Of a DNA stretch of 64,000 nucleotides, positions 5,527 through 57,490 are shown one piece after another. The stretch is from a virus. Under the pieces are notes generated by a model that was not told where the DNA came from, did no database searches, and worked only from the letters and a program-made list of their open reading frames with translations. The stretch is taken from positions 33,142 through 97,141 of IMG/VR virus record IMGVR_UViG_3300024239_000013; one strand, given 5' to 3'. Position 1 is the first letter of the stretch. Each line of letters starts with the position of its first letter. Position numbers and translations under genes: made by a program.

Positions 5527-6354
5527 ATGAGCATTAAGAATTATAAAACATTCATAAGTGAAAGTTCGGATGCAAGTACACTGACAACTGAACAAATAGA
5601 TTTCCTTGACAAGTATGTTATCGGTAAATGGCATATGAATGATGATGGATTTGTTGATGTTGATGGCGTGTTTGATTGTTCTAATAAAGGGATATCTGAT
5701 TTTAAAGGAATAAAGTTTGGTAATGTTGATAGACATTTTAATTGTGCTGATAACAAATTAACCTCATTAGAAGGCGGTCCAAAAGAGGTTGGTGGTAGTT
5801 TTTATTGTAGTCATAACAAAATAACCTCATTAGAATTTGGTCCGAAAGAAGTTGGTGGTCATTTTTATTGTAATCATAACAACATAACCTCATTAGAAGG
5901 TTGTCCAAAAGAGGTCGGCGGTAGTTTTAATTGTTCGTATAACAACTTAATCTCATTAGAATTTGGTCCAAAAGAGGTGAAAGGATATTTTAATTGCTCA
6001 GATAACAACTTAATCTCATTAGAAGGAGCTCCGAAAGAAGTTGACGGTAGTTTTAATTGCTCAGATAACAACTTAATCTCATTAGAAGGAGCTCCAATAG
6101 AAATTGGGCGGGAATTTTATTTGGATCATAACGAAGGTGCATCAGCAGAAACTCTAAAATCGATATACAGTAAAATGAAAGAAGCCAAATCTGATTATAA
6201 AACAGTTTTAAAATCTTTATGGAAAGGAATATCAATAGGAGATAAAATACTTTTATACACACCAGATCTGGATTGGGTTGAAGAAGATGAAGCGGCTAAA
6301 TTATATAACCTAAAGAAGTACAATAGCATAAAGAAAATGCTCTATTTCATATAA
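5527..6354 (+). CDS. targeting-sequence/LRR-like tandem family member 1 (putative capsid-internal, injected protein). Probable start at the internal Met (MSIKNYKTFISESS); the track ORF begins at 5488
   Basis: N-terminal Y-K-T-F-I-S-E-S motif; 22-aa F-x-C-S-x-N-x-L-T/I-S-L-E-G-x-P-K-E-V-G-G repeats; conserved C-terminal domain (KTVLKSLW...LYTPDLDWVEEDE...LKKYNSIKKM). Confidence 0.75.
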   Translation: MSIKNYKTFISESSDASTLTTEQIDFLDKYVIGKWHMNDDGFVDVDGVFDCSNKGISDFKGIKFGNVDRHFNCADNKLTSLEGGPKEVGGSFYCSHNKITSLEFGPKEVGGHFYCNHNNITSLEGCPKEVGGSFNCSYNNLISLEFGPKEVKGYFNCSDNNLISLEGAPKEVDGSFNCSDNNLISLEGAPIEIGREFYLDHNEGASAETLKSIYSKMKEAKSDYKTVLKSLWKGISIGDKILLYTPDLDWVEEDEAAKLYNLKKYNSIKKMLYFI

Positions 6355-6368
6355 TATAAAGAAGCATA

Positions 6369-7064
6369 ATGAAAAGAATCTCAAATTATAAAACATTCAT
6401 AAATGAAAGTACAGGTGCAAGTACATTGACTGCAGAACAGATCGATTTCCTTGATAGATGTGTTAGAGGAACGTGGAAGCTGAATGATGAAGAATTTGTT
6501 GATGTTGATGGGAATTTTGATTGTTTCAATAAAGGAATATCTGACTTTAAAGGAATAAAGTTTGGTAAGGTTAATGGAGATTTTGATTGTTCATATAATA
6601 ATTTAAGTTCTTTGGAAGGATGTCCAAAAGAAGTTGTTGGACATTTTGATTGCTCACATAACAAATTATCTTCATTAGAATTTGCTCCGGAAAGGGTGAG
6701 AAGTAGTTTTTATTGCTCACACAACAACTTAACCTCATTAGAATTTGCTCCGGAAAGGGTGAAAAATAGTTTTTATTGTCAGAATAACAGCTTAACCTCA
6801 TTAGATGGGGTTCCTAAAAAAGTTGGAGGATTTTTTTATTTTGATCATAATGAAGGGATTTCTTCAGAAACCTTAAAAATGATATCCATCCAAATGAAAG
6901 TAATCAAATCTGATTATAAAACAGTTTTAAAATCTTTATGGAGTGAAATACCAGTAGAAGACAAAGTACTTTTATATTCATCAGATCTAGATTGGGTTGA
7001 AGAAGATGAAGGATCTAAATTATCTAATCTAAAGAAGTATAAAAACATAAAGAAAATGATCTAA
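6369..7064 (+). CDS. targeting-sequence/LRR-like tandem family member 2
   Basis: Same N-terminal motif, repeats and C-terminal domain; conserved upstream junction ...TAATATAATATAAAGAAGCATAATG. Confidence 0.8.
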   Translation: MKRISNYKTFINESTGASTLTAEQIDFLDRCVRGTWKLNDEEFVDVDGNFDCFNKGISDFKGIKFGKVNGDFDCSYNNLSSLEGCPKEVVGHFDCSHNKLSSLEFAPERVRSSFYCSHNNLTSLEFAPERVKNSFYCQNNSLTSLDGVPKKVGGFFYFDHNEGISSETLKMISIQMKVIKSDYKTVLKSLWSEIPVEDKVLLYSSDLDWVEEDEGSKLSNLKKYKNIKKMI

Positions 7065-7080
7065 TATAATATAAAGCAAC

Positions 7081-7965
7081 ATGATGAAAAGAATCTCGAA
7101 TTATAAAACATTCATAAACGAAAGCTCGAGTGAAAATAAGCTGACTCAGAAACAACTTGATTTTCTTAACAACCACGTTAAGGGATATTGGAAGTTGAAT
7201 GCTGGAGTTGTTGATGTTGATGGCGATTTTGATTGTTTTAGTAAAGGGATATCAGACTTTAAAGGAATAGTGTTTGGAAAGGTTAGCGGAGATTTTGATT
7301 GCTCACGTAATAATTTAAGTTCTTTAAAAGGTGCTCCTAAAGAGGTTGGTGGACATTTTGATTGTTCACATAACAACTTAAAATCATTAGAAGGAGCTCC
7401 AAAACAGGTTAGTGGAGATTTTGATTGCTCACGTAATAATTTAAGTTCTTTGGAAGGTGCTCCTAAAGAGGTTGGTGGACATTTCCATTGTTCATACAAC
7501 AAATTAACATCATTAGAAGGTTGTCCTAAAGAAGTTGGTGGACATTTTTATTGTTATGTTAACAAATTAACCTCATTAGAATTTGGTCCTAAAGAAGTTG
7601 GTGGAGATTTCGATTGCTCTGACAACAAATTAACCTCATTAGAATTTGGTCCCGAAGAGGTTGGGAGAAGCTTTAATTGCTCAAATAACAAATTAACATC
7701 ATTAGAAGGAGCTCCTAAAGAAGTTGGTGGAGATTTACGATTTTCTCATAATGAGGGAATATCAACCAAAACGATAGGTCTTATATTTGACAAAATGAAA
7801 AAGTCCAAATTGGACTATTCTGATGCTTTAAAATCTTTATGGAAAGAAATACCAGTAGAAGACAAAGTACTTTTATATTCATCAGATCTAGATTGGATTG
7901 AAGAAGATGAAGCGTCTAAATTAGTTAAGTTAAAGAAGTATAATAGCATAAAGAAAATGATCTAA
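7081..7965 (+). CDS. targeting-sequence/LRR-like tandem family member 3
   Basis: Paralog architecture; MMKRISNYKTFINESS start. Confidence 0.8.
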   Translation: MMKRISNYKTFINESSSENKLTQKQLDFLNNHVKGYWKLNAGVVDVDGDFDCFSKGISDFKGIVFGKVSGDFDCSRNNLSSLKGAPKEVGGHFDCSHNNLKSLEGAPKQVSGDFDCSRNNLSSLEGAPKEVGGHFHCSYNKLTSLEGCPKEVGGHFYCYVNKLTSLEFGPKEVGGDFDCSDNKLTSLEFGPEEVGRSFNCSNNKLTSLEGAPKEVGGDLRFSHNEGISTKTIGLIFDKMKKSKLDYSDALKSLWKEIPVEDKVLLYSSDLDWIEEDEASKLVKLKKYNSIKKMI

Positions 7966-7984
7966 TATAATATAAAGAAGCATA

Positions 7985-8869
7985 ATGAAAAGAATCTCAA
8001 ATTATAAAACATTCATAAACGAAAGCTCGAGTGAAAGTACGCTAACACCTGAACAAATTAATTTCCTTAACAATTATGTTAAGGGATATTGGAAGTTGAA
8101 TGCTGATGGAGTTGTTGATGTAGATGGCCATTTTAGTTGTTTCAATAAAGGGTTATCAGACTTTAAAGGAATAGTGTTTGGAAAGGTTAATAGAGATTTT
8201 GATTGTTCAAACAACAACTTAACCTCATTAGAAGGCTGTCCAAAAAAAGTTGGGGGAGATTTTTTTTGTTATGTTAACAAATTAACCTCTTTAAAAGGAT
8301 CGCCAAAAGAGGTTGGTGGTAGTTTTATTTGTTCAGGTAATAACATAATCACATTGGAAGATGCACCTAAAAAAACCAGAAGAAGCTTTGATTGCTCACA
8401 TAATAAATTAACATCATTAGAATTCGGTCCAAAAGAGGTTGGAGGCAATTTTAACTGCTCGCATAATAAATTAACATCATTAGAAGGTGCTCCTGAAGAA
8501 GTTGGTGTGGATTTTTATTGTTATTATAACGAATTGAATAATCTAAAGGGTTCCTCGTATGTAGTTGGAAGAGATTTTAACTGCTCGGATAATAAATTAA
8601 CATCATTAGAAGGAGCTCCAAAAGAAATTGGAGATGATTTCATATTAGAAGATAATGAAGGTGTTTCTTCAGAAATCTTAAAAGAGATATTTAGAAAAAT
8701 GTTAGAATCCAAATTGGACTATAAAACAGTTTTAAAATCTTTATGGAAAGAAATCTCAATAGAAGATAAAATACTTTTATACACACCAGATCTAGACTGG
8801 GTTGAAGAAGATGAAGGGTCCAAATTAGTTAAGCTAAAGAAGTATAGCAACATAAAGAAAATGATCTAG
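7985..8869 (+). CDS. targeting-sequence/LRR-like tandem family member 4
   Basis: Paralog architecture. Confidence 0.8.
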   Translation: MKRISNYKTFINESSSESTLTPEQINFLNNYVKGYWKLNADGVVDVDGHFSCFNKGLSDFKGIVFGKVNRDFDCSNNNLTSLEGCPKKVGGDFFCYVNKLTSLKGSPKEVGGSFICSGNNIITLEDAPKKTRRSFDCSHNKLTSLEFGPKEVGGNFNCSHNKLTSLEGAPEEVGVDFYCYYNELNNLKGSSYVVGRDFNCSDNKLTSLEGAPKEIGDDFILEDNEGVSSEILKEIFRKMLESKLDYKTVLKSLWKEISIEDKILLYTPDLDWVEEDEGSKLVKLKKYSNIKKMI

Positions 8870-8883
8870 TATAAATCAGCATA

Positions 8884-9828
8884 ATGAAAAGAATAATAAA
8901 TTATAAAACATTCGTAAATGAAAGTTCAGGTGCAAGTACACTGACAACTGAACAAATAGATTTCCTTAACAGGTATGTTAGGGGGAAATGGAAGTTGAAT
9001 GCTGGAGTTGTTGATGTTGATGGCGATTTTGATTGTTTTAGTAAAGGGATATCAGACTTTAAAGGAATAGTGTTTGGAAAGGTTAGCGGAGATTTTGATT
9101 GCTCACGTAATAATTTAAGTTCTTTAAAAGGTGCTCCTAAAGAGGTTGGTGGACATTTTGATTGTTCACATAACAACTTAAAATCATTAGAAGATGCACC
9201 TAAAAAAACTGGACGTAGTTTTTATTGTTCGTATAATAAATTAACCTCATTAGAATTTGCTCCGGAAAGGGTGAGAAGTAGTTTTCATTGTCAGAATAAC
9301 AGCTTAACCTCATTAGAAGGAGCTCCTAAAGAAGTTGGAGGGTATTTCGATTGCTCAAGCAACAACTTAACCTCATTAGAAGGAGCTCCAAAAGAGATTG
9401 GGTATGATTTCGATTGCTCACACAACAACTTAACCACATTAGAAGGCTGTCCAAAAGAAATTGTTGAAGATTTCGATTGCTCACACAACAACTTAACCAC
9501 ATTGGAATTCTCTCCAGAGAAAGTTGGTGTTAATTTTTATTGCTTCAATAACAACTTAATTTCATTAAAAGGAGCTCCAAAAGAGATTGGATATGATTTC
9601 ATATTAAAAAATAATGAAGGAGCATCATCAGAAATCTTAAAAGAGATATTTAGAAAAATGTTAGAATCCAAATTGGACTACTCTGATGTTTTAAAATCCC
9701 TTTGGGATGAAATACCAATAAAAGATAAAATAGTTCTATATACCCCTGATCTAGACTGGGTTGAAGAAGATGAAGCGTCTAAATTATCTAAGTTAAAGAA
9801 GTATAGCAACATAAAGAAAATGATCTAG
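8884..9828 (+). CDS. targeting-sequence/LRR-like tandem family member 5
   Basis: Paralog architecture; 9 repeat units. Confidence 0.8.
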   Translation: MKRIINYKTFVNESSGASTLTTEQIDFLNRYVRGKWKLNAGVVDVDGDFDCFSKGISDFKGIVFGKVSGDFDCSRNNLSSLKGAPKEVGGHFDCSHNNLKSLEDAPKKTGRSFYCSYNKLTSLEFAPERVRSSFHCQNNSLTSLEGAPKEVGGYFDCSSNNLTSLEGAPKEIGYDFDCSHNNLTTLEGCPKEIVEDFDCSHNNLTTLEFSPEKVGVNFYCFNNNLISLKGAPKEIGYDFILKNNEGASSEILKEIFRKMLESKLDYSDVLKSLWDEIPIKDKIVLYTPDLDWVEEDEASKLSKLKKYSNIKKMI

Positions 9829-9842
9829 TATAAATCAGCATA

Positions 9843-10727
9843 ATGAAAAGAATAATAAATTATAAAACATTCGTAAATGAAAGTTCAGGTGCAAGTACAC
9901 TGACAACTGAACAAATAGATTTCCTTAACAGGTATGTTAGGGGGAAATGGAAGTTGAATAATGATGGGGTTGTTGATGTAGATGGGGATTTTAATTGTTT
10001 TAATAAAGGGTTATCAGACTTTAAAGAAATAAAATTTGGAAAAGTTACAGGATATTTTGATTGCTCTAAGAACAACTTAACCTCATTAGAGGGTTCACCA
10101 AAAAAAGTTGGTGTAGATTTTTATTGTAGTCATAACAAATTAACCTCATTAGAAGGAGCGCCTATAGAAGTTTATAGAAGTTTCGATTGCAAGGGTAACA
10201 AATTAACCTCGTTAGAATTCGGTCCAAAAAAGGTGGAGGGAAATTTTATTTGTTCAATTAACAAATTAACCTCGTTAGAATTCGGTCCAAAAGGAGTTCC
10301 TGGAACTTTCAATTGTTCATTTAACAAATTAACCTCGTTAGAATTCGGTCCAAAAGAAGTCGGAAGTAGTTTTAATTGCTCATTTAACAACTTAACCTCA
10401 TTAGAATTCTCTCCAGAGAAAGTTGATGTTGATTTTTATTGCTCGAATAATAAATTAACATCATTAGAAGGTGTCCCAAAAGAAATTGGTGGATATTTCT
10501 GGTGTTCTTATAATGTTGGACTATCGACAGATATAATAAATCTTATATTCAGAAAAATGATAAAGTATAGATCTGATTATAAAACAGTTTTAAAATCTTT
10601 ATGGAAAGAAATCTCAATAGAAGACAAGATACTTTTATATTCATCAGATCTAGATTGGATTGAAGAAGATGAAGCGGCTAAATTAGCTAAGTTAAAGAAG
10701 TATAGCAACATAAAGAAAATGATCTAG
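9843..10727 (+). CDS. targeting-sequence/LRR-like tandem family member 6
   Basis: Paralog architecture; 5' region nearly identical to member 5 at the nucleotide level. Confidence 0.8.
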   Translation: MKRIINYKTFVNESSGASTLTTEQIDFLNRYVRGKWKLNNDGVVDVDGDFNCFNKGLSDFKEIKFGKVTGYFDCSKNNLTSLEGSPKKVGVDFYCSHNKLTSLEGAPIEVYRSFDCKGNKLTSLEFGPKKVEGNFICSINKLTSLEFGPKGVPGTFNCSFNKLTSLEFGPKEVGSSFNCSFNNLTSLEFSPEKVDVDFYCSNNKLTSLEGVPKEIGGYFWCSYNVGLSTDIINLIFRKMIKYRSDYKTVLKSLWKEISIEDKILLYSSDLDWIEEDEAAKLAKLKKYSNIKKMI

Positions 10728-10741
10728 TATAAATCAGCATA

Positions 10742-11689
10742 ATGAAAAGAATAATAAATTATAAAACATTCATAAACGAAAGCTCGAGTGAAAATAACTT
10801 GACACCTGAACAGATATATTTCCTGAACAAGCAGATTAAGGGGAAATGGAAGTTGAATGCTGATGGGGTTGTTGATGTTGTTGGAAATATCCATTGTTCA
10901 CATAGAGAAATATCGGACTTCAAGGGAATAAAATTCGGAAAAGTTACTGGGTATTTTGATTGCTCAAATAACAACTTAACATCATTAGAGGGTTGTCCAA
11001 AAGAGGTTGGTGGACATTTTTATTGTTCATATAACAGCTTAACATCATTAGAGGGTTGTCCAAAAGAGGTTGGGGGACATTTTTATTGTCAACGTAACAA
11101 CTTAACCTCATTAGAAGGTGGTCCAGAAAGAGTGAATGGAGATTTCATTTGTTATGGTAACAAATTAGCTTCATTAGAATTTGGACCCAAGGAGGTTAGA
11201 GGTACTTTCGATTGCTCAAATAACAAATTAACATCCTTAGAAGGATGCTCTAAAGAGGTGAATGGAGATTTCGATTGCACATATAACAAATTAACATCAT
11301 TAGAATTCTCTCCAGTTAAAGTTGGTGGTACTTTCGATTGTTCAGATAATAACTTAACCTCATTAGAATTTGGACCTGAAGATGTTGGGGGAGGCTTTAA
11401 TTGTTCCCGTAATAAATTAACCTCATTAGAAGGAGCTCCTAAAGAAGTTGGAGGTACTTTACGATGTTTTTATAATGAGGGTTTATCAAACGAAACAATA
11501 GGTCTTATATTTGAAAAAATGATAAAATCCAGATTGGATTATAAAACAGTTTTAAAATCTTTATGGGGAGAAATACCAATAAAAGATAAAATAGTTCTAT
11601 ATACCCCTGATCTGGATTGGGTTGAAGGAGATGAAGCGGCTAAATTATCTAATCTAAAGAAGTATAGCAACATAAAGAAAATGATCTAA
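10742..11689 (+). CDS. targeting-sequence/LRR-like tandem family member 7
   Basis: Paralog architecture. Confidence 0.8.
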   Translation: MKRIINYKTFINESSSENNLTPEQIYFLNKQIKGKWKLNADGVVDVVGNIHCSHREISDFKGIKFGKVTGYFDCSNNNLTSLEGCPKEVGGHFYCSYNSLTSLEGCPKEVGGHFYCQRNNLTSLEGGPERVNGDFICYGNKLASLEFGPKEVRGTFDCSNNKLTSLEGCSKEVNGDFDCTYNKLTSLEFSPVKVGGTFDCSDNNLTSLEFGPEDVGGGFNCSRNKLTSLEGAPKEVGGTLRCFYNEGLSNETIGLIFEKMIKSRLDYKTVLKSLWGEIPIKDKIVLYTPDLDWVEGDEAAKLSNLKKYSNIKKMI

Positions 11690-11705
11690 TATAATATAAA
11701 AAAAC

Positions 11706-12653
11706 ATGATGAAAAGAATAGTAAATTATAAAACATTCATAAACGAAAGCTCTGGTGAAAATAACCTGACCCCAGAACAAATTGATTTCCTTAACAACTA
11801 TGTTAAGGGGAAATGGAAGTTTAATGTTGGAGTTGTTGATATTGATGGCGATTTTAGTTGTTTCGATAGAGGAATATCTGACTTTAAAGGAATAGTGTTT
11901 GGAAGGGTTACCGGTCATTTTGACTGTTCGGATAACAACTTAACATCATTAGAAGGTTGTCCAAAAGAGGTTGGTGGAAATTTTTATTGTCATTATAACA
12001 ACTTAACCTCATTAGAAGGTTGTCCAAAAGAGGTTGGCGGACATTTTTATTGTCATTATAACAACTTAACATCATTAGAAGGTTGTCCAAAAAAAGTGAA
12101 TGGAGATTTCGATTGCACAGATAACAACTTAACCTCATTAGAATTCGGTCCAAAAGAGATTAATGGACATTTTTATTGTTATGATAACAGCTTAACCTCA
12201 TTAGAATTTGGTCCCGAAAGAGTGAATGGAGATTTTGATTGTTCGAATAACAACTTAACCTCATTAGAATTTGGACCCAAAGAGGTTGGTGGTACTTTCG
12301 ATTGCTCACGTAATAACTTAAGCTCGTTAGAAGGTGTTCCTGAAAAGCTGAACGGAGTTTTTTATTTCTCATGTAACAAATTAACCTCATTAGAAGGTGC
12401 TCCTAAAAAACTAGGATCACAATTTTTTTGTGAGAATAATGAAGGGATATCAACCAAAACGATAAATCTTATATTTGACAAAATGGAAACCTCCAAATCT
12501 GATTATAAAACAGTTTTAAAATCTTTATGGAAAGAAATACCAATAGAAGATAAAATACTTTTATACACCCCAGATCTTGATTGGGTTGAAGAAGATGAAG
12601 GGTCTAAATTAGCTAAGTTAAAGAAGTATAGCAACATAAAGAAAATGATCTAA
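11706..12653 (+). CDS. targeting-sequence/LRR-like tandem family member 8
   Basis: Paralog architecture. Confidence 0.8.
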   Translation: MMKRIVNYKTFINESSGENNLTPEQIDFLNNYVKGKWKFNVGVVDIDGDFSCFDRGISDFKGIVFGRVTGHFDCSDNNLTSLEGCPKEVGGNFYCHYNNLTSLEGCPKEVGGHFYCHYNNLTSLEGCPKKVNGDFDCTDNNLTSLEFGPKEINGHFYCYDNSLTSLEFGPERVNGDFDCSNNNLTSLEFGPKEVGGTFDCSRNNLSSLEGVPEKLNGVFYFSCNKLTSLEGAPKKLGSQFFCENNEGISTKTINLIFDKMETSKSDYKTVLKSLWKEIPIEDKILLYTPDLDWVEEDEGSKLAKLKKYSNIKKMI

Positions 12654-12671
12654 TATAATATAAAGAGCACA

Positions 12672-13367
12672 ATGAAAAGAATAGTAAATTATAAAACTTT
12701 CATAAATGAAAGTGCAGGTGCAAGTACACTGACTTCAGAACAGATAGATTTCCTTAACAACTATGTTAAGGGGAAATGGAAGCTGAATGGTGAAGGATTT
12801 ATTGATATAGATGGTGATTTTAGTTGTTTCGATAAAGGGTTATCAGACTTTAGATGGATAAAATTTGGAAAAGTTACAGGGTATTTTTATTGTTCATATA
12901 ATGGATTGACATCATTAGAGGGAGCACCAAAAAAAGTTGGTTTGAGTTTTTATTGTCATAATAACAAATTAACATCATTGGATGGCTCTCCTAAAGAGAT
13001 TGGTGGAAATTTCGATTGCTCTGACAACAAATTAACCTCATTAGAATTCTCACCCGAAAGTGTAAAGGGGAGCTTTGATTGCTCATATAACAACTTAACA
13101 TCATTAGAATTTGGTCCTAAAGAAGTTGGCGGAGATTTACGATTTTCTCATAATGAGGGATTGTCAACCAAAACGATAGGTCTTATATTTGACAAAATGG
13201 AAAAGTCCAAATTGGACTATAAAACAGTTTTAAAATCTTTATGGAAAGAAATACCAATAGAAGATAAAATACTTTTATACAATGCGGATCTAGATTGGAT
13301 TGAAGGAGATGAAGCGGCTAAATTAGCTAAGTTGAATAAATATAGCAACATAAAGAAAATGATCTAA
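12672..13367 (+). CDS. targeting-sequence/LRR-like tandem family member 9 (short, fewer repeats)
   Basis: Paralog architecture. Confidence 0.8.
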   Translation: MKRIVNYKTFINESAGASTLTSEQIDFLNNYVKGKWKLNGEGFIDIDGDFSCFDKGLSDFRWIKFGKVTGYFYCSYNGLTSLEGAPKKVGLSFYCHNNKLTSLDGSPKEIGGNFDCSDNKLTSLEFSPESVKGSFDCSYNNLTSLEFGPKEVGGDLRFSHNEGLSTKTIGLIFDKMEKSKLDYKTVLKSLWKEIPIEDKILLYNADLDWIEGDEAAKLAKLNKYSNIKKMI

Positions 13368-13386
13368 TATAATATAAAGAAACATA

Positions 13387-14271
13387 ATGAAAAGAATAGT
13401 AAATTATAAAGCATTCATAAACGAAATCTCGAGTGAAAATAACTTGACACCAGAACAGATAGATTTCCTTAACAGGTATGTTGAGGGGAAATGGAAGTTG
13501 AATGCTGATGGAGCTGTTGATGTAGATGGCGATTTTAGTTGTTTCGATAAAGGGTTATCAGACTTTAAAGGAATAGTGTTTGAGAAGATTAGTGGAGATT
13601 TTGACTGTTCGGCTAACAGCTTAATATCATTAGAAGGTTGTCCAAAAGAGGTTAATGGATATTTTTATTGTCATTATAACAAACTAACCTCATTAGAATT
13701 TGGTCCTGAAAGTGTAGATGGAGATTTCGATTGTTCGAATAACAATTTAACTTCATTAGAATTTGGACCCAAAGAGGTTGGTGGAAATTTTGACTGTTCA
13801 TACAACAAATTAACCTCATTAGAAGTCTGTCCAAAAAAAGTTGGGGGAACTTTCAATTGTTCATTTAATAAATTAACATCATTAGAATTCAGTCCAAAAG
13901 AGGTTGGTGGTAGTTTCAATTGCTCATTTAACAACTTAACATCGTTGCAATTCTCTCCAGAGAAAGTTGATGCTTATTTTCATTGTTCAAATAACAACTT
14001 AACCTCATTAGAAGGGGTATCAAAAGAAGTTGGAGGGAATTTAAGATGTTTTTATAATGAAGGGCTATCAACCGAAACAATAAATCTTATATTTGACAAA
14101 ATGATAAAGTCCAAATTGGACTATTCTGATGCTTTAAAATCTTTATGGAAAGAAATACCAGTAGAAGACAAAGTACTTTTATACACACCCGATCTAGATT
14201 GGGTTGAAGAAGACGAAGCGTCTAAATTAGCTAAGCTAAAGAAGTATAGCAGCATAAAGAAAATGATCTAG
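13387..14271 (+). CDS. targeting-sequence/LRR-like tandem family member 10
   Basis: Paralog architecture. Confidence 0.8.
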   Translation: MKRIVNYKAFINEISSENNLTPEQIDFLNRYVEGKWKLNADGAVDVDGDFSCFDKGLSDFKGIVFEKISGDFDCSANSLISLEGCPKEVNGYFYCHYNKLTSLEFGPESVDGDFDCSNNNLTSLEFGPKEVGGNFDCSYNKLTSLEVCPKKVGGTFNCSFNKLTSLEFSPKEVGGSFNCSFNNLTSLQFSPEKVDAYFHCSNNNLTSLEGVSKEVGGNLRCFYNEGLSTETINLIFDKMIKSKLDYSDALKSLWKEIPVEDKVLLYTPDLDWVEEDEASKLAKLKKYSSIKKMI

Positions 14272-14285
14272 TATAAAGAAGAATA

Positions 14286-15233
14286 ATGAAAAGAATAGTA
14301 AATTATAAAACTTTTATAAACGAAAGTTCAGGTGCAAGTACACTGACAACTGAACAGATAGATTTCCTTAACAGGTATGTTAAGGGGAAATGGAAGTTGA
14401 ATGATAATGGAGTTGTTGATGTTGATGGTGATTTTAGTTGTTCCGATAAAGAAATATCAGACTTTAAAGGAATAATATTTGGAAAAGTTACCGGTCATTT
14501 CTATTGCTCAAGTAACAACTTAAGATCATTAGAAGGTTGTCCCAAAGAGGTTGGAGGGGGTTTCAATTGCTCACGTAATGAATTAACATCATTGGAAGGT
14601 TGTCCAGAAAGGGTGAATGGAGATTTCATTTGTTATGGTAACAACTTAACCTCATTAGAAGGTTGTACAGAAAGAGTGAATGGAGATTTCATTTGTTCGG
14701 CTAACAACTTAACCTCATTAGAAGGCTGCCCTAAGGAAGTTGAGGGATTTTTCAATTGTTCATTTAATAAATTAGCTTCTTTAGAAGGATGTCCTGGAGA
14801 AATTGGAAGTAGTTTTTATTGTTCGTATAACAAATTAACCTCATTAGAATTTGGCCCAGAAATGGTGAATGGAGATTTCGTTTGTTCAGATAACAAATTA
14901 ACCTCGTTAGAATTCAGTCCAAAAGAAGTTGGTGGTAATTTTATTTGTTCAGATAACAACTTAACATCATTAGAGGGAATATCAAAAAAAGTTGGGGGAT
15001 CTTTATGGTGTTCTTCTAATGAAGGACTATCAACCGAAACGATAGATCTTATATTTGATAAAATCATAAAGTTCAAATTGGACTATTTGGATGCTTTAAA
15101 TTTTTTATGGGAGGATATCCCAATAGAAGATAAAGTACTTTTATACACACCCGATTTAGATTGGATTGAAGGAGAGGAAGCGGTTAAATTATCTAATCTA
15201 AAGAAGTATAGTAAAATAAAGAAAATGATATAA
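14286..15233 (+). CDS. targeting-sequence/LRR-like tandem family member 11
   Basis: Paralog architecture. Confidence 0.8.
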   Translation: MKRIVNYKTFINESSGASTLTTEQIDFLNRYVKGKWKLNDNGVVDVDGDFSCSDKEISDFKGIIFGKVTGHFYCSSNNLRSLEGCPKEVGGGFNCSRNELTSLEGCPERVNGDFICYGNNLTSLEGCTERVNGDFICSANNLTSLEGCPKEVEGFFNCSFNKLASLEGCPGEIGSSFYCSYNKLTSLEFGPEMVNGDFVCSDNKLTSLEFSPKEVGGNFICSDNNLTSLEGISKKVGGSLWCSSNEGLSTETIDLIFDKIIKFKLDYLDALNFLWEDIPIEDKVLLYTPDLDWIEGEEAVKLSNLKKYSKIKKMI

Positions 15234-16698: not shown

Positions 16699-17661
16699 AT
16701 GACAGAAGAAAAACTTTTTAGATGGACTAATTATTCAGTAAAGTCACTAGAAAATTTAATTGAAGGGATGGAAAAACATCATCCGGAAGATTATAAAAAG
16801 ATAAAGGAAATAAGTGATCGTTTACTATTGTATTATAGGGGAGATAATATATTAACAGAAAAACAAAAAAATACTCTAGATTCTTTATCTAAAGATTGGT
16901 ACATATCACCAGAAAACGGAGGGGTTAATATTGGATATATGTATGCTTCGGATTGGGGATTATCCATTAAAAATTATTGGGAAGAGGATACGGAATCTGC
17001 GAGAAAAAAAAGACTAAAGCTTTTTGAGGATCTTAAAAAAATAAAATTTAATGAGGTTTATTCTCTTTCTTTGAGATCGTGTGGATTAGAAGAATTTTGG
17101 CCAAATATGCCAAAAAGAACTTCTAGATTTGATTGTTCCTATAATAAGATAGAAAGTCTAGTTGGAGGTCCAGAATATGCTAGTGAATACGATTTCTGTG
17201 GGAATAATATTAAAAGCTTTGATGGGTTACCTGACAATGTTAAAGAATTAGATTGCAGTCATAACCCAATAGAGGATTTTTCAACCCTAAAAGTTAAAGA
17301 ATTATTAAGGTTTAGATGTCGGGATACACATATAAAAAATCTAATAGGTTGTCCTAAAGTTACAACCTTTTTAGACGTATCAGGATGTAAGTTAACCTCA
17401 GTTGAAGGAGCCCCGTTAAATTTAACCTTAAGAGAGGTTAATTTTGGGGAAAATGTGGTTAGTGAAAAAACATTAAAACTTGCTTTCAATGCAATGAAAA
17501 AAGCTAAAGGAGATTATGGTAAAGGATTGGATAAAATATGGAAAAAAATACCTATAGAAGACCAAATACAAATGTATAAGGACAATCCAAATCTTACTAA
17601 TGATGAGGTAAAAAAATATTACAATTTAAAAAAATATTTTGATATAAAAACTTTTATATAA
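16699..17661 (+). CDS. divergent member of the LRR-like family; lacks the targeting-like start but keeps F-D-C-S-x-N repeats and the conserved C-terminal domain
   Basis: FDCSYNKIESLVGGP and LDCSHNPIEDF repeats; C-terminal GDYGKGLDKIWKKIPIEDQIQMY...NLKKYFDIKTFI parallels the family C-terminus. Confidence 0.6.
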   Translation: MTEEKLFRWTNYSVKSLENLIEGMEKHHPEDYKKIKEISDRLLLYYRGDNILTEKQKNTLDSLSKDWYISPENGGVNIGYMYASDWGLSIKNYWEEDTESARKKRLKLFEDLKKIKFNEVYSLSLRSCGLEEFWPNMPKRTSRFDCSYNKIESLVGGPEYASEYDFCGNNIKSFDGLPDNVKELDCSHNPIEDFSTLKVKELLRFRCRDTHIKNLIGCPKVTTFLDVSGCKLTSVEGAPLNLTLREVNFGENVVSEKTLKLAFNAMKKAKGDYGKGLDKIWKKIPIEDQIQMYKDNPNLTNDEVKKYYNLKKYFDIKTFI

Positions 17662-34505: not shown

Positions 34506-34831
34506 TACTTAAATCTTTTTATAACTTTAAGTTTATCTATTTCAAATGCCATTTCTTCTAGTGACTTAGTTTCAAATATTATTTCATTTTTATCAACATC
34601 CATCATTACTCTATCATACTCACCAGTTTCTTTATTTCTTACTACGAAACAAGCCACTTTTAAAGAATCGTTCTGCTCACCAGATCCCCATAATACTGAT
34701 TTATCGACTGCGTGTCTTGTGCTTATTTTGTCATGAAACCACTCGTGTGTTTCTGACTCCCAATACAAACCATCTCTTTCTAAAAATTCGTTTCTTTCCA
34801 TACTTATTTTTCTGTTGTTGGTTTTAGCCAC
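34505..34831 (-). CDS. hypothetical protein
   Basis: 108-aa ORF. Confidence 0.45.
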   Translation of the reverse strand: MAKTNNRKISMERNEFLERDGLYWESETHEWFHDKISTRHAVDKSVLWGSGEQNDSLKVACFVVRNKETGEYDRVMMDVDKNEIIFETKSLEEMAFEIDKLKVIKRFK

Positions 34832-35547
34832 ATTCCATTACTAAAAATGATCTGAATTATTCTTGGATTAATTTTCTTTATATTTTCTAATAGCTCAAGT
34901 GTTTTGATAGTGTCTTCTTTGAACATCTTAAATATCTCCTCCCTTATTCTTTCCTGAGAAACAACCTTTTCTAATTTATCGATAACTTCTTCGTTTGAAC
35001 AAACTTTCATAATCTCTTCCGAAATAGTAAATCCTTTTGTTACTGAAAATCTAAAAGCTCGTATAAGTCTTAATGGATCATCTAGCATGGTCTTTTCGGT
35101 TTCTAATGGTGTTATTAGGATTTTATTTTTCAAGTGCTCTAGACCACCAAAATGATCTATAATTCGACCATATTCATCTTTTGCTAAAGCATTCAAAGTA
35201 AAATCTCTTCTTTTTAAGTCGTCGTTAAGATTACCTGGTTTTATTATAGGTTGTCTAGTTCCTGGAAAATAACCAACCTCTTTTCTTGACATTACAAAAT
35301 CTGCAACCCCCTGATATTTGTGATTTGCTGGGAATTGTGCTCTTATTGTAAAACAATCGGGATGTGTTACAAATATTCTGAAACCCTCATTATTCAAATA
35401 GGTTTCCAGAATAGTAAACATTTCATAAGCTGTATAGTCTCTTGACAATAAACTTTCATACGGAACTGCTACATAATCAACATCCTTTGAAACCAAACCT
35501 AAAATTTCATCTCGGACCTTTCCTCCGACTTCGTAAAATGTAAACAT
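34804..35547 (-). CDS. minimal tRNA nucleotidyltransferase (CCA- or A-adding enzyme head domain; polymerase beta superfamily)
   Basis: GGKVRDEILG...DVDYV motif, RRDFTLNALA motif and DPLRLIRAFRF motif are the class-II CCA-adding head-domain signatures. Confidence 0.7.
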   Translation of the reverse strand: MFTFYEVGGKVRDEILGLVSKDVDYVAVPYESLLSRDYTAYEMFTILETYLNNEGFRIFVTHPDCFTIRAQFPANHKYQGVADFVMSRKEVGYFPGTRQPIIKPGNLNDDLKRRDFTLNALAKDEYGRIIDHFGGLEHLKNKILITPLETEKTMLDDPLRLIRAFRFSVTKGFTISEEIMKVCSNEEVIDKLEKVVSQERIREEIFKMFKEDTIKTLELLENIKKINPRIIQIIFSNGMWLKPTTEK

Positions 35548-38166: not shown

Positions 38167-38625
38167 TTAATTTTCTGATATTTGACTTGAAATCTTTTTA
38201 ACTTTACCAATATCCGCTCTTCCTTGATATTTTTTATTAAACTCACCGATGGTTTTACCTATTAGCGCCTGCTTATTGGTAATCACGTTTTTAAAGCTTT
38301 TCATAATTTCTGAAAGTGCCTCTTCAACCTCTTTATCCGACATTTGTGCTGGCATATAATTTCTAAGAACTGAAGCTTCTGCAGATTCCTTTATAGCCAA
38401 ATCATGTCTTCCGTTTTTTTCAAAGATTTCAATTGACTCTTCCCTTTGCTTGATTGCCTTGTTAATTATTTTAAGAAAATCAGCATCTGTCATTTCCACA
38501 TTTGGATTTGATTTTTCTGCAAGTGTAATTGCTGATTTTACACTACTCAAAGCTGCCTTAGCATCATTGTCCTTATTCTTCATTGCAGATAAAAAATCTG
38601 CATTTACCCTTTCTTTAATTGTCAT
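38167..38625 (-). CDS. YqeY/GatB-domain protein
   Basis: Full-length similarity to the YqeY family (MKxxDxxAKxALSSxK..., KQREESIEIFEKNGRHDLAxKE, YMPxQMSDxE, GRADIGKV). Confidence 0.65.
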   Translation of the reverse strand: MTIKERVNADFLSAMKNKDNDAKAALSSVKSAITLAEKSNPNVEMTDADFLKIINKAIKQREESIEIFEKNGRHDLAIKESAEASVLRNYMPAQMSDKEVEEALSEIMKSFKNVITNKQALIGKTIGEFNKKYQGRADIGKVKKISSQISEN

Positions 38626-39457
38626 CTATCTTTGTTTTTAAAGTATTTCTAATAAAATCTCTTTCCTGTGTAAATATTGGGGTTTCTACAACAGACCATT
38701 TATTCCTTTTGTATGTTTCTCCATTTTCTATGTTATTCATAGTAACCTGAATTTTTTTAATTACCGCCCCCCTTTTTTTTCGGAAATCATAATCATTCCA
38801 GTTGATCCCCTTCTGAAAAATCATTTCTTGCAACTGGTCAGTTTTTACCCCATTTAATTGATTGTGACTATAAAGACTTTGTGCCACCGAAGAGATGCTA
38901 TTCCTTACTGCATCTTGTTGTCTCCAGATAAAGTAGTTTTCGACCTCATCTATAAAAGGGATTTGAAATGCTCTGGCATCGAACGTAGCAAGTTTGAAAT
39001 TTTCAATTTCAGATTCTTTTAAAAGATTTCCATCGTAATTCATCGAATGATTAGCAATTCCAAATTCATTACAAAACCTTTTCATTCTAAGTTGATTAAA
39101 TTTTGCTGTAGCCATAGATGATGCAACAGAAACCATTTTTTGCAAGTTATTATCAAACCATGCATGTGTTCCAAGATCGTCGAAATCTGTTAGTAAAAGA
39201 CTTATCTCATCTGACTGAACGTAACCTAACTTGGTTCCTTGTATGTTTTTGCAGAGATAAACTGTTGTCTCATTCATGTCTTCAATTAGACCTTCGTCAA
39301 ATGGACGTTCTAAACCTTTAGTGTAGGTGTGAAATGCTTTCCCGTCGATCCTGATGATCGTGTAAGTTCTTCTTGGGAGCTTGATCCTTGTTCTATCTTC
39401 GTAGAACTCTTTCATTCTGTCGCCTAATGCGTCTTTCATAATATTTGCTTTATGCAA
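38615..39457 (-). CDS. Thg1-like protein (tRNA-His guanylyltransferase family 3'-5' nucleotidyltransferase)
   Basis: GDRMKEFYE, IIRIDGKAFHTYTKGLERPFDE and YVQSDEISLL match the catalytic core of Thg1 and bacterial Thg1-like proteins. Confidence 0.75.
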   Translation of the reverse strand: MHKANIMKDALGDRMKEFYEDRTRIKLPRRTYTIIRIDGKAFHTYTKGLERPFDEGLIEDMNETTVYLCKNIQGTKLGYVQSDEISLLLTDFDDLGTHAWFDNNLQKMVSVASSMATAKFNQLRMKRFCNEFGIANHSMNYDGNLLKESEIENFKLATFDARAFQIPFIDEVENYFIWRQQDAVRNSISSVAQSLYSHNQLNGVKTDQLQEMIFQKGINWNDYDFRKKRGAVIKKIQVTMNNIENGETYKRNKWSVVETPIFTQERDFIRNTLKTKIDDN

Positions 39458-42403: not shown

Positions 42404-42847
42404 TTATATTTTGATCTCTCTATTAATATCTCTTTCTATATCTCTATTTTTAATAACTTCCCTTTTATCATAGTTCTTTTTACCCCTAGATAAAGATATC
42501 TCTAATTTAAATAAGGACCTATCATTTTCATAAATTCTGCAAGGAACTATACTCATACCTTTTATTAGATCCTTTTGGAGTTTATTAAGCTCCTTTCTTT
42601 TTAATAAAAGTTTTCTATCTCTTTTTGGATTGTGTGAATAGTTTGGGTTCGTCGATGATATGTGTAGGTTTCTTATGAAAAGTTCATTATTTATAAAATA
42701 GCAATAAGAATCTGTAAAATCAATTCTATTTTCTCTAATAGATTTTACCTCAGATCCAACCAATTGAATCCCTGCATCTAATTTTTTTATAAATTCAAAT
42801 TCAAATTTTGCTTTTTTGTTAATGATATTTATTTTTGATGGTTTCAT
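42404..42847 (-). CDS. smpB: SmpB (SsrA/tmRNA-binding ribosome-rescue protein) homolog
   Basis: End-to-end collinearity with bacterial SmpB: KFEFEFIKKLDAGIQLVGSEVKSIRENRIDFTDSYCYF..., RKLLLKRKELNKL, GMSIVPCRIYENDRSLFKLEISLSRGKKNYDKRE. Confidence 0.75.
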   Translation of the reverse strand: MKPSKINIINKKAKFEFEFIKKLDAGIQLVGSEVKSIRENRIDFTDSYCYFINNELFIRNLHISSTNPNYSHNPKRDRKLLLKRKELNKLQKDLIKGMSIVPCRIYENDRSLFKLEISLSRGKKNYDKREVIKNRDIERDINREIKI

Positions 42848-43158
42848 ATTAGTCCTGAGAGTTTAAATTCGAGTCCATTTTTTTTAGCTTTAATCTCAGC
42901 TTTTACCTCTATAACAGCATCTCCTAGATAATCACGATCGGTTTTTTCTACTGTGATGTCTATGTATCCTTCGTCTAAAAGTTGATTCGTTAATTTATTT
43001 AATACCTCACTTTTCACTTTTTCGATGATAAGTTGTTCAACTGATGATCCTCGATAAGCAAAAGCTCCGAATCTATAAGATGCTGATGCTTTAAAAATCT
43101 TAGTTTCCGGTTCATCAAAAAGCTTTCTTATGGTTTTTAATGATTTATCATGATCCAT
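42844..43158 (-). CDS. hypothetical protein
   Basis: 104 aa; overlaps the smpB start (ATGA). Confidence 0.5.
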   Translation of the reverse strand: MDHDKSLKTIRKLFDEPETKIFKASASYRFGAFAYRGSSVEQLIIEKVKSEVLNKLTNQLLDEGYIDITVEKTDRDYLGDAVIEVKAEIKAKKNGLEFKLSGLI

Positions 43159-52653: not shown

Positions 52654-53328
52654 TTATTTCAACTTTTTAGATTTGATAACTTCATCAATTATACCATATT
52701 CAACTGCATCTTCTGAGCTTAACCAGAAATCTCTGGTTGCATCATTTTTTACCTGTTCGGCAGTTTTTCCACAATATTCGCCAAGAAGCTCAAATAAAAT
52801 CTCATTGTATTTTTTCCACTCTAACATATCAATTTCTGCGTCTTGTATGTTTCCGCTAAATCCACCGCTGGATTGGTGAAGCATAACCTTACTAAATCTT
52901 AGTGAGGCTCTTTTACCCTTAGTTCCTGCTCCCAATAAAACAGATCCCATTGAAGCTGCCATTCCTGTATTCACTGTTACTATGTCGGATTTAATGTAAC
53001 CCATAACGTCAACCATACTAAGTCCAGATTTAACAGATCCTCCTGGTGTGTCAATATGCATTGTAATGTCTCTATCATCAACAGAATCTAGAAACATAAG
53101 TTGTGCTTGTACAACGGTAGACATGTCGTCGTTAACAACTCCCGCAACCCAAAGAATTCTATCCATCATTAACCTATCAAAGACTGTCATCTGAGTAACT
53201 CTAAGCTGTCTCTCCTCGAGAATCATAGGAGTCATTGATGACTGGATTTTTTTGTCATAATAATCCAATTTCATAGAACTTATTCCGCTGCTCAGAGCAT
53301 ATTTTTTAAATTCCGCTGATGTATTCAT
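52654..53328 (-). CDS. clpP: ClpP-family serine protease. Probable start at the internal Met (MNTSAEFKK...); the track ORF extends to 53403
   Basis: Full-length ClpP similarity: DRILWVAGVVND, IDTPGGSVKSGLSMVDVM, GMAASMGSVLLGAGTKGKR, MLHQSSGGFSGNIQDAEI. Confidence 0.7.
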   Translation of the reverse strand: MNTSAEFKKYALSSGISSMKLDYYDKKIQSSMTPMILEERQLRVTQMTVFDRLMMDRILWVAGVVNDDMSTVVQAQLMFLDSVDDRDITMHIDTPGGSVKSGLSMVDVMGYIKSDIVTVNTGMAASMGSVLLGAGTKGKRASLRFSKVMLHQSSGGFSGNIQDAEIDMLEWKKYNEILFELLGEYCGKTAEQVKNDATRDFWLSSEDAVEYGIIDEVIKSKKLK

Positions 53329-53350
53329 ATTTAATCTATATTTTGTTTTT

Positions 53351-53755
53351 TTAATAATGTAAATCAATAAATAAAAAATCCTGATCGTCTTTATAGCTAA
53401 CACAACTCCAAGCAGGATGATATTGTTCTTTCAGCTCATCCCCAATCTCAATAATATTCGATAATGGATCCTCGATATCATATTCAGGTTCAAGACCACA
53501 TTCTCTTCTTTTAGATTCTTTTAAAAGATTTTCATTCATTTTTTTTGCTGAATGATAGGTAACACCTTCCTTTAGATAAACCCCCCAATCATTTCTTTCG
53601 AAATAAAAGTCCTCAACCCTCTGTATCATTATTTTTGCGTCATCTGGGATTCCATTTTTCTTTACGAATTCCTTTAGCCCACCAACAGTCAAATGCTGTT
53701 TATAATTCTTAATATCTTCTTTTGTGAGTTTTTTAATATTATTTTTATTCCTCAT
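53351..53755 (-). CDS. hypothetical protein
   Basis: 134-aa ORF. Confidence 0.45.
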   Translation of the reverse strand: MRNKNNIKKLTKEDIKNYKQHLTVGGLKEFVKKNGIPDDAKIMIQRVEDFYFERNDWGVYLKEGVTYHSAKKMNENLLKESKRRECGLEPEYDIEDPLSNIIEIGDELKEQYHPAWSCVSYKDDQDFLFIDLHY

Positions 53756-55288: not shown

Positions 55289-55708
55289 TTATAATTCTAT
55301 TTCAAATCTATCTTTCATTTTTCTTATAGATTCTTCAGGAACCTCGTGAACATTAGTTCCCCCGTGTCTGTTCTCTATAATTATACTAGTTACCATATAA
55401 CCATATTCCTTTGCCAATTTGAAATATGGTTCCATTTCCCATTCTTGTGTAAATGTATTGGAAACTACTATTTCTGGATAATATCGAGAGTTTTGTTTAT
55501 TCTCTTTCATTCTATTCTCAACCTCATTTCTACACCATTCATGTGCAGCTTTTAATTTAGAAGGATTGAAATTATATTCCCCAGTTTCTTTATCGTAGAA
55601 ATATTTGTCAGCCTCGCATATTTCACAATCATTCCAAAGATGTCTTGCGAATGTAGATTTACCAGAGCCAGGTACACCTCTAATTAAAAATAGTGTAGGA
55701 TTCAACAT
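55289..55708 (-). CDS. polynucleotide 5'-kinase (T4 Pnk kinase-domain-like P-loop protein)
   Basis: LIRGVPGSGKSTFARHL versus T4 Pnk TIGCPGSGKSTWAREF; LAKEYGYMV versus T4 FAKEYGWKV. Confidence 0.65.
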   Translation of the reverse strand: MLNPTLFLIRGVPGSGKSTFARHLWNDCEICEADKYFYDKETGEYNFNPSKLKAAHEWCRNEVENRMKENKQNSRYYPEIVVSNTFTQEWEMEPYFKLAKEYGYMVTSIIIENRHGGTNVHEVPEESIRKMKDRFEIEL

Positions 55709-55741
55709 TTTTGTGGATTTTTTTAGATTTAATTTATTAAA

Positions 55742-56386
55742 TTAATTTTCCATGTGATGGTCTTTAGGTAGGACAAGAGTCTTTATTGGTCTGCCTTTTA
55801 AAATACCTAAGATCTCGTCTAGACTATATGGCTTTAAATCGTTACCATCAACTCCTACATCCATTGCTCTCCCCGAATTTACCTTTAAATTAGGTGGAAG
55901 ATGAACGTGTCCATGCAGATGTGGAACTCCCCTCCCCATATCTTCCCAGCTAGCAACAGGGAAGTGACTGCAGAAAAATTTGTATTTTTCAGTTTCTTTA
56001 TCCCGAGGTCTTCTTATTTCTAAGATATCATAGAATGCAACTTCTTTGAATATCTCTTGAATACCTTCTCTATTATTTTTTATGTGATGATCGTGATTTC
56101 CAAGAAATATGATAATATTCTTACATTTTATTTGAGATCTAAATTGTTCTATGGATTCAAATCCACCAAAACTCCAATCCCCTAAGTGGACTAAATAATC
56201 ATTCTCGTCAACATATAAATTTATTCCGTTAACAAGAGCGGAATTCATTTCCCCTAAGCTGTGGAAATCCCTAGTTCTGCTGGATTTATCACTCCAAGTT
56301 GAAACTCCTCGACAAATATTCTGGTGTGAATAGTGAGTATCGCTAGTAAACCAAATTTTCTGGTTCTTTTCTAATGTTATTTTCAT
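55742..56386 (-). CDS. calcineurin-like metallophosphoesterase (candidate 2',3'-cyclic/3'-phosphate end-healing phosphatase)
   Basis: WFTSDTHYSH, GDWSFGG, GNHDHH and HGHVH metallophosphoesterase motifs; sits between the kinase and Rnl1 genes, as in bacterial Pnkp. Confidence 0.6.
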   Translation of the reverse strand: MKITLEKNQKIWFTSDTHYSHQNICRGVSTWSDKSSRTRDFHSLGEMNSALVNGINLYVDENDYLVHLGDWSFGGFESIEQFRSQIKCKNIIIFLGNHDHHIKNNREGIQEIFKEVAFYDILEIRRPRDKETEKYKFFCSHFPVASWEDMGRGVPHLHGHVHLPPNLKVNSGRAMDVGVDGNDLKPYSLDEILGILKGRPIKTLVLPKDHHMEN

Positions 56387-56392
56387 AATTAT

Positions 56393-57490
56393 CTAATCTT
56401 CTGTTTTATTCCAAAATGGTTTTTGATATTTGGGTCTTATCATTTTCCAGATTTTTTCTGAATAGTCATTCCCATCATAGAACATAAATAAAATACTTGT
56501 TATATCTCTATCTTGTTCTTTTGCCCATTCTGCAAATTCCTTCCTTCCTTTATCTTTTTCAAAATCTGGTCTTTTTTCAAAGAAGCTCTTGTAAATATCG
56601 TTTACTCTTTCCTCTATTGATGAATAGTTATATTTCAATTCTTTTATTATTTTCTTCACCCAAAGATCAAATTCATCAGGAACCCTATCCAAAAAATTAC
56701 CAAGATCCTGTTTATTTTTTAAGAGCTCCCAGATATCCACATTCGAGAAGTTTGTCAATAGTCTATGTAATCTAACATATTCCTCGCCTTTTATTTTCAT
56801 TCTGAATCCGGAAGAAAATCTAATAACGAAACCCTCGGAATTTGAAGATATTATTTTTTTAAGCTCTTTGTAATTATTAAGACCGTCATATTTTTTAACT
56901 ACTTTAAACCCTATAGTTCCTAGAATACCCTGGTTTTTTAAGTTCATTAAGCTTTTTTCGTCAGAGTGAATATCATATTCATATCCATCTAAATTATCAA
57001 TAACTGAAAGTAAAATGATATCCTCAAAATCATAGCTAACAACTATTCGATTTTCTGGGTAGATAATCTCGAATAAATAAGTGCAATCTTTCAACAAATC
57101 CTTATAATGATATTTCTCCAATATAGATCTTCCCCTTATCGCTTGCTCTGAAGTGAATGATCCTTTTGTAGCAAAATGCCATTCCCCTTCGTAATTGAAA
57201 AGTATACCCAAGGATCCGTCCATCTTCTCGAAAACATCAAAATTTTCGTTCGGAATATCGCTAGAATCCAATTCTTCTAAATTAAAGAATTTAGGAAATG
57301 TCCTTGCAACGACATTTCCTTCCCTATCAAGAACCGTCCCTCTCATATTAAGAGTGATTTCATCCCACTCTTTAGAGAATTGGCACTCTCTTGAATAGTT
57401 ATAAATATCCAAAGGTAATGATGGATGAGAATTTTTTTCTAAAAGACCTCTTTCAATATAGGAATTGAGAATATTTATATCGTATTTCAT
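56393..57490 (-). CDS. RNA ligase 1 (T4 gene 63 / Rnl1-like tRNA repair ligase)
   Basis: Collinear with T4 Rnl1: MRGTVL (CRGIMF), FPKFFNL (PMEKFFNL), motif I EKMDGSL (KEDGSL), ATKGSFTSEQA (FKSKGSIKSEQA), EIIYPENRIVVSY. Confidence 0.75.
   Translation of the reverse strand: MKYDINILNSYIERGLLEKNSHPSLPLDIYNYSRECQFSKEWDEITLNMRGTVLDREGNVVARTFPKFFNLEELDSSDIPNENFDVFEKMDGSLGILFNYEGEWHFATKGSFTSEQAIRGRSILEKYHYKDLLKDCTYLFEIIYPENRIVVSYDFEDIILLSVIDNLDGYEYDIHSDEKSLMNLKNQGILGTIGFKVVKKYDGLNNYKELKKIISSNSEGFVIRFSSGFRMKIKGEEYVRLHRLLTNFSNVDIWELLKNKQDLGNFLDRVPDEFDLWVKKIIKELKYNYSSIEERVNDIYKSFFEKRPDFEKDKGRKEFAEWAKEQDRDITSILFMFYDGNDYSEKIWKMIRPKYQKPFWNKTED

Follow-up and report, generated by a model that had tools for sequence, protein, structure and literature searches.

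Huge phages have been stated to encode tmRNAs and SmpB (Al-Shayeb et al. 2020, PMC7162821), and a phage-encoded tmRNA has been described in the marine methylophage Melnitz (PMC9004378). The locus analysed here lies in a stretch of 64,000 nucleotides, positions 33,142 to 97,141 of IMG/VR virus record IMGVR_UViG_3300024239_000013, which is referred to as the window. A reading made from the letters of the window (the sequence-only reading) had regarded a viral SmpB as highly unusual. This assessment has to be withdrawn in view of the cited report on huge phages and of the frequency of the gene. An alignment-based scan of IMG/VR yields 233 relatives of the window SmpB, many of them on phage contigs of 217–434 kb, the best 80 being found largely on contigs of 50–434 kb. 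By tblastn, 56 GenBank phage records match SmpB; every Lak phage is among them, as are the 735-kb and 636–642-kb phages of Al-Shayeb et al. Moreover, the window protein matches phrog_6791, a PHROG family annotated as 'unknown function'. SmpB copies are common in large phages, and a phage-borne SmpB is by itself not new. A search of GenBank phages for DNA near-identical to the window found none.

The SmpB protein and its phage lineage

The gene is located as follows:

42404..42847, minus strand: smpB, ATG start, full-length product of 147 aa that includes the C-terminal tail GKKNYDKREVIKNRDIERDINREIKI

The identification of the 147-aa product as SmpB is secure, both by family thresholds and by fold. 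The protein reaches 154.7 bits with Pfam SmpB PF01668 (cut-off 27), covering profile positions 3–142 of 143, and extends to the model end of the NCBIfam equivalog NF003843 (158 bits, cut-off 130) as well as of TIGR00086 (156.3 bits, cut-off 119.1). The closest solved structure in a sequence search is T. maritima SmpB (7ljp), with E=3.7e-38 and residues 5–145 aligned. An AlphaFold model, for which 14 phage homologues served as input, has a mean pLDDT of 83.9 and displays a beta-barrel core followed by a C-terminal helix (residues 128–146). Comparison of this model with the PDB by Foldseek gives SmpB in 21 of the 21 top matches, with a TM of up to 0.92 and an r.m.s.d. of 1.3–1.9 Å to 2czj. All conserved blocks are found upon alignment to E. 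coli SmpB (reference sequence checked and identical to 6q98 chain 5), the aligning motifs being NKKAKFEF, AGIQLxGSEVKSIR, DSYC, RDRKLLLKR, GKKNYDKR and the basic tail. The claim that the product is a full-length SmpB with every conserved block is fully borne out by profiles, structure match, model and alignment.

In E. coli SmpB, D137-K138-R139 and H136 are functionally important. The sequence-only reading had made its interpretation depend on the C-terminal tail residues, and the alignment confirms that these are present: in the window protein G122-K-K-N-Y-D127-K128-R129 is followed by 18 more residues, the tail is basic, and residues 128–146 are predicted to form a helix. Among the 14 phage homologues 33 columns are invariant, D127-K128-R129 included.

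Directly beside smpB lies a 104-aa ORF (42844..43158, minus strand), the stop of which overlaps the smpB start by 4 nt, so that both form one transcription unit. This ORF has no family match. An ORF of similar size occupies the same position in relatives, without detectable sequence similarity. Since a homologue is absent even in the closest relative, the ORF was rejected as a conserved partner of SmpB.

Sequence comparison assigns the window SmpB to a phage-specific lineage. Neighbour-joining analysis of 146 distinct SmpBs, carried out without bootstrap support values, sets the viral copies including that of the window apart from 75 Bacteroidota proteins. Moreover, 60 of 70 viral SmpBs, again including that of the window, share a 2-residue deletion in the loop around residues 66–70 and a 1-residue deletion around residues 95–97 (window numbering), while the longer form with neither deletion is found in all 75 Bacteroidota SmpBs compared. 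As a rare-change character, the shared deletions support the grouping of the phage proteins. The nearest cellular SmpBs all belong to Bacteroidota and are 44–54% identical to the window protein.

Within the subclade of the window, orthologues are 60–72% identical and all exactly 147 aa long. Their pN of 0.07–0.24 contrasts with a saturated pS of 0.73–0.93, and one close pair differs by synonymous changes only (pN=0, pS=0.078). With pN far below pS, these comparisons indicate that smpB is under strong purifying selection and is kept by selection. It is not a recent passenger, nor is it in decay.

Phage genome and RNA-repair island

Contigs of 276 kb and 319 kb encode the same SmpB protein. One ENA assembly breaks inside a tandem paralogue array (5.5–15 kb of the window), giving rise to contigs of 276 kb and 89 kb, from which a genome size of probably more than 360 kb follows; close IMG/VR relatives measure 344–373 kb. 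The array and a related ORF are located as follows:

5488-15233, plus strand: tandem array of 11 paralogous ORFs (231–315 aa), faintly matching LRR and PHROGs of unknown function
16699-17661: 320-aa ORF related to those of the array

At the site of the array, the 344-kb relative L034 has one homologue only.

The window has a GC content of about 30% throughout and is densely packed with genes, mostly on one strand. PHROG matches include T4 Rnl1, an RNA ligase that also catalyses tail-fibre attachment, together with an Srd-like/HNH protein, a phosphatase and a tRNA-His guanylyltransferase; a weak match to the Gp23 capsid protein was obtained in one related locus. For a 395-aa protein of the window, the best cultured relatives come from the Tenacibaculum jumbo phages PTm1, PTm5 and pT24, and after these from the Prevotella Lak megaphages. 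Because of the T4 Rnl1, Srd-like and Thg1 PHROG families, these cultured relatives and the Bacteroidota origin of the nearest cellular SmpBs, the source is most likely a huge T4-like phage of Bacteroidota. Its hosts are probably Bacteroidota of freshwater. The Tenacibaculum phages are absent from the 56 GenBank phage records matching SmpB, which makes the gene dispensable for that type of phage.

On both sides of smpB, the following genes were identified:

34804..35547, minus strand: CCA-adding enzyme (PolyA_pol family)
38167..38625, minus strand: YqeY (GatB/YqeY-domain) protein
38615..39457, minus strand: Thg1-like tRNA-His guanylyltransferase / 3'-5' polymerase (PF04446; phrog_4717 at 293 bits; phage homologues)
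45717..48300, minus strand: PHA02142/Rnl2-like RNA ligase, interrupted by a homing-endonuclease ORF and thereby divided into three ORFs; a single 380-aa gene in relatives
52654..53403, minus strand: ClpP protease subunit
55289..56386, minus strand: metallophosphatase (55742-56386) and AAA_33 kinase (55289-55708), a polynucleotide kinase/phosphatase-like pair adjoining the ligase below
56393..57490, minus strand: T4 Rnl1-type RNA ligase (PF09511; phrog_562 at 226.8 bits)

RNA ligases, kinase/phosphatase, Thg1-like and CCA-adding enzymes are classical tools for mending cleaved tRNAs and restoring their ends. smpB is part of a conserved island of RNA repair and translation maintenance, which also contains a 5'-nucleotidase. 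The block is syntenic across the subclade and is kept in independent assemblies of 127–373 kb. A CCA-adding enzyme lies within 10 kb of smpB in 9 of 9 fetched loci of the window's subclade (11 SmpB loci were fetched overall). ClpP is positioned about 7–10 kb from smpB in the window and in the relatives L166 and L169, an arrangement which fits disposal of tagged chains. The parts of the Rnl2-like ligase are ORFs of 269 aa and 245 aa, both with weak intein-splicing matches, and between them, in a different frame, lies a 322-aa homing-endonuclease-like ORF. The arrangement resembles a 'fractured gene', in which a split intein is combined with a free-standing endonuclease.

tmRNA genes and tRNA-like RNAs

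In agreement with the sequence-only reading, no canonical tmRNA is detectable in the window. ARAGORN at default settings calls neither a tRNA nor a tmRNA; Rfam reports no tRNA or tmRNA at gathering scores and no tmRNA family at E<=10; and no match results from an nhmmer profile, for which 26 phage tmRNAs were used, or from a custom finder directed at the tRNA-like domain of tmRNA. The custom finder looks for a T arm and a 7-bp acceptor stem with G3-U70, and recovers 4 of 4 control tmRNAs. Permuted 'tmRNA' calls, which ARAGORN produces at lowered thresholds, are located inside coding regions and are spurious. The same four methods did not find a tmRNA in the 10-kb flanks past both ends of the window (L172, L175), nor within 10 kb of smpB in the window's subclade, for which 20-kb loci around the orthologues of at least 11 related contigs were searched (L163–L171, L192–L197, L200, L202, L239). 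A search of the full genome for ssrA with ARAGORN or Infernal had been proposed. The part completed, the window with its flanks, comprises about 84 kb of a genome of probably more than 360 kb and contains no hit. A scan of IMG/VR for phage-tmRNA motifs returned no contig of the window's subclade among the at least 120 matches listed. The window lacks the phage smpB-tmRNA module, in which a tmRNA is located within a few kb.

Such modules are found in a sister part of the lineage, in which the SmpBs are 49–59% identical to that of the window. Among the best 80 IMG/VR loci, 37–38 contain a phage-type tmRNA at a distance of 0.5–7 kb from smpB. In L188 (7996-8381 and 9213-9611; similarly in L189 and L215), tmRNA, a GOLLD RNA and smpB are all found within 2.5 kb; the tmRNA of L188 matches RF00023 at 75.2 bits and has a G3-U70 acceptor, and the GOLLD RNA (276 bits) is placed between tmRNA and smpB. 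The presence of tmRNA beside smpB in the sister clade ties the lineage to trans-translation. The tags of phage-type tmRNAs are long and unusual and do not have the common ALAA end (L006, 9458-9855; L206, 10918-11312; e.g. GNTFAKLAALGLTKEAAVVGA, GNILDKMSAIGLIRAEEVVVA).

ARAGORN called only 2 of the 37–38 linked phage-type tmRNAs and missed that of L188. Surveys based on this program therefore under-count phage tmRNAs and, with about half of the lineage beside a divergent tmRNA of this kind, phage trans-translation modules have probably been under-counted. In LR756501 and LR756504, 50-kb stretches at or beside smpB contain many tRNAs and no tmRNA called by ARAGORN, a result of little weight, since the program is insensitive to the phage type. 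In that part of the tree where linkage is mostly absent, tmRNAs of L237/L238 and L271 are located 5–7 kb from smpB, that of L271 within a cluster of 27 tRNAs. Linkage between smpB and tmRNA is accordingly loose in such large genomes, and it is quite possible that a tmRNA is encoded elsewhere in the remaining ~280 kb of the window genome.

About 20 kb from smpB, two tRNA-like RNAs are encoded. These had been pointed out before as odd tRNA-like genes at 21.8–22.9 kb, and they do exist:

22011-21849, minus strand: tRNA-like RNA A, 163 nt, with 7-bp acceptor stem, Leu-type D arm, T arm and 111-nt insert
22899-22772, minus strand: tRNA-like RNA B, 128 nt, same scaffold as RNA A, 78-nt insert, homologues in L036 and L044

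Each RNA has U8-G9, the D arm GCGGAAU(U/C)GG(U/A)AGACGC and a canonical T arm, and the inserts replace the anticodon and variable arms. Neither is called by ARAGORN at default settings or by Rfam at gathering scores; the Rfam tRNA model aligns with the 3' part of RNA B only, at 21.6 bits (cut-off 29). A classification as canonical tRNA was rejected, since the folds contain no anticodon stem-loop. Assignment to tmRNA was likewise rejected due to the missing G3-U70, the full D arm, the failure to match a covariance model (no Rfam hit to RF00023 or the permuted tmRNA families at E<=10) and the lack of a shared reading frame. At pair 3-70, RNA A has U-A and RNA B has C-G. RNA A holds an open frame of 15 codons with a GCA start and a TAA end, for which there are no homologues to compare conservation. 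In RNA B the acceptor is mismatched at 1-72 (A-A) and 2-71 (U-U), while the homologues in L036 and L044 pair normally. Thg1-like 3'-5' polymerases repair mismatched tRNA 5' ends in protist mitochondria. It is conceivable that the mismatched 5' end of RNA B is a substrate for 5'-editing by the phage Thg1-like enzyme (38615-39457).

A two-arm pattern derived from these RNAs recovered 69 and 8 stretches from IMG/VR (L014–L082, L181–L187), one of them a false positive, which corresponds to 59 unique tRNA-like copies with RNAs A and B of the window each counted twice. The scaffold is almost invariant (A1-U72, G2-C71, U3-A70, C4-G69, A5-U68, G6-C67, G7-C66), with U-A at pair 3-70 in 54 and a discriminator A in 53 of the 59 copies. 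The inserts, 58–122 nt long, fall into about 40 unrelated sequence classes, two of which show compensatory changes in insert helices. Many copies sit in clusters of phage tRNA genes and share their strand. One family member, in L075, lies beside a complete tRNA set for 20 amino acids, indicating that these RNAs are extra and do not stand in for a missing tRNA. In three relatives of 344–373 kb, smpB is accompanied by a family member, which occupies the syntenic position but has an insert of a different class. In GenBank phages, at most 28% of RNA B is covered by any one record and a full-length match was not obtained. A description of the family, which ARAGORN and Rfam do not call, was not found in the literature searched and, in our view, it is more unusual than smpB itself.

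Role of the phage SmpB

The window protein is likely a functional, canonical SmpB of a huge phage, which sustains trans-translation by means of an unlinked phage tmRNA or the tmRNA of the host. Between these partners, an unlinked phage tmRNA in the other ~77% of the genome is slightly preferred, with host tmRNA as a close alternative. Activity, partner and benefit to the phage are inferred, the mechanistic steps on the basis of the conserved motifs and of what is established for SmpB. The phage SmpB would bind the tRNA-like domain of tmRNA and replace the missing anticodon arm. Its basic C-terminal helix would then probe the mRNA channel left empty in ribosomes that have stalled on truncated messages, whereupon ribosomes would be freed and nascent chains tagged. 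With its own supply of SmpB, the phage would keep ribosomes available while mRNAs and tRNAs are cut during infection, either by phage-driven decay of host mRNA or by host abortive-infection RNases. Within the island, SmpB would add rescue of ribosomes stalled on cleaved mRNAs to tRNA repair, and ClpP would dispose of the tagged chains.

A protein of this kind might alternatively act against trans-translation, by sequestering host tmRNA or by filling stalled ribosomes unproductively; host trans-translation would then be shut down, or phage proteins would be spared tagging for degradation. The subclade without linked tmRNA would suit such a role, as would a lineage which is only about 50% identical to any cellular SmpB and has its own loop deletions. 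However, one would expect an inhibitor to have lost the tail that activates ribosomes, and here both GKKxYDKR and the basic helix show no or almost no variation. The sister clade, moreover, carries the same type of protein beside a complete tmRNA with a tag reading frame, and the nearby phage ClpP fits productive tagging and degradation. Retention of the tail together with the tmRNA-linked sister clade favours canonical rescue, and hijacking or inhibition appears unlikely. That smpB is a functionless, recently captured host gene, or that the contig is bacterial or chimeric and mislabelled as viral, is scarcely credible. Many short 'viral' SmpB records in GenBank and IMG/VR are probably prophage-host junctions, ssrA being a common integration site, and L007, L010 and L011 have standard tmRNAs adjoining smpB. 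The window is of another kind: identical protein and gene order recur in independent ENA, JGI and Logan assemblies, orthologues hold their position in contigs of 127–373 kb, the protein has phage-specific indels and is under strong purifying selection, and all neighbours are phage-type with a uniform composition of about 30% GC. A non-functional passenger is excluded by selection and synteny.

A further explanation starts from the absence of the anticodon arm in RNAs A and B, which lack exactly the arm that SmpB replaces. In the subclade, SmpB might have become uncoupled from tmRNA and work with these RNAs, which, once aminoacylated (possibly with leucine), would gain entry to stalled ribosomes and act there as minimal rescue RNAs or as decoys. 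Such entry would be non-alanine, tag-less or of variable payload, and the CCA-adding and Thg1-like enzymes of the same island would mature the RNAs. The near-perfect acceptor stem, the Leu-type D arm, the T arm and the discriminator A, all kept, are in line with this proposal, as are the co-occurrence with smpB on the window genome and in the three 344–373 kb relatives and the GCA...TAA frame of 15 codons in RNA A. A partnership of this sort is nevertheless very improbable. Pair 3-70 is U-A in nearly the whole family instead of G3-U70, the D arm is that of a full tRNA, unlike the tRNA-like domain of tmRNA, and the tmRNA families of Rfam do not match. The ~40 insert classes do not have a common reading frame, and an in-frame stop breaks the candidate frame in one of them. 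In addition, the family occurs in ordinary phage tRNA clusters, and many of its contigs have no smpB in the fetched stretch.

If canonical rescue by the phage SmpB with host tmRNA applies, these phages top up a single quality-control protein of the host to survive RNA-targeting defences. The window's subclade, in which smpB is strongly selected within an RNA-repair island and no tmRNA is nearby, provides a natural test of SmpB acting on host tmRNA. It belongs to a large phage-specific SmpB lineage that is marked by shared indels.

Comparison with known systems

Compared with bacterial SmpB (7ljp; T. thermophilus 2czj/4v8q; E. coli 6q98), the window protein is of the same length class and shares fold, conserved blocks, GKKxYDKR and the basic helical tail. 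It differs in being phage-encoded, in its identity of 44–54% to the nearest cellular proteins (Bacteroidota), in the 2-aa and 1-aa loop deletions common to other phage copies and in the absence of a nearby ssrA. With the smpB and tmRNA modules of L188, L206, L210, L222 and L224 it has in common the phage-specific SmpB lineage and the same indels, at 49–59% identity. In these modules, however, a tmRNA of 380–420 nt is located 0.5–2 kb from smpB, whereas none lies within 10 kb in the window's subclade.

Like the huge phages with SmpB and tmRNA (PMC7162821; Lak megaphages; LR756501-4), the window phage has a large genome with translation-termination and rescue genes including SmpB. In the records of these huge phages, SmpB is 37–52% identical to that of the window (tblastn). 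In the neighbour-joining tree, however, the copy of the 735-kb phage (L178) clusters with Bacteroidota proteins and not with the window lineage, which suggests separate acquisitions.

The tRNA-like RNAs resemble rnaC and rnaD of T4 (species 1 and 2 RNAs), which are 119–139 nt long and of unknown function, have a tRNA-like 3' part and lie beside tRNA genes. Homology at the sequence level was rejected, as no similarity was seen on reading the T4 sequences, and the RNAs of the window may be analogues of this T4 pair. They differ from rnaC and rnaD as members of a new family, in which a complete and near-invariant scaffold of acceptor, D and T arms is combined with a hypervariable insert.
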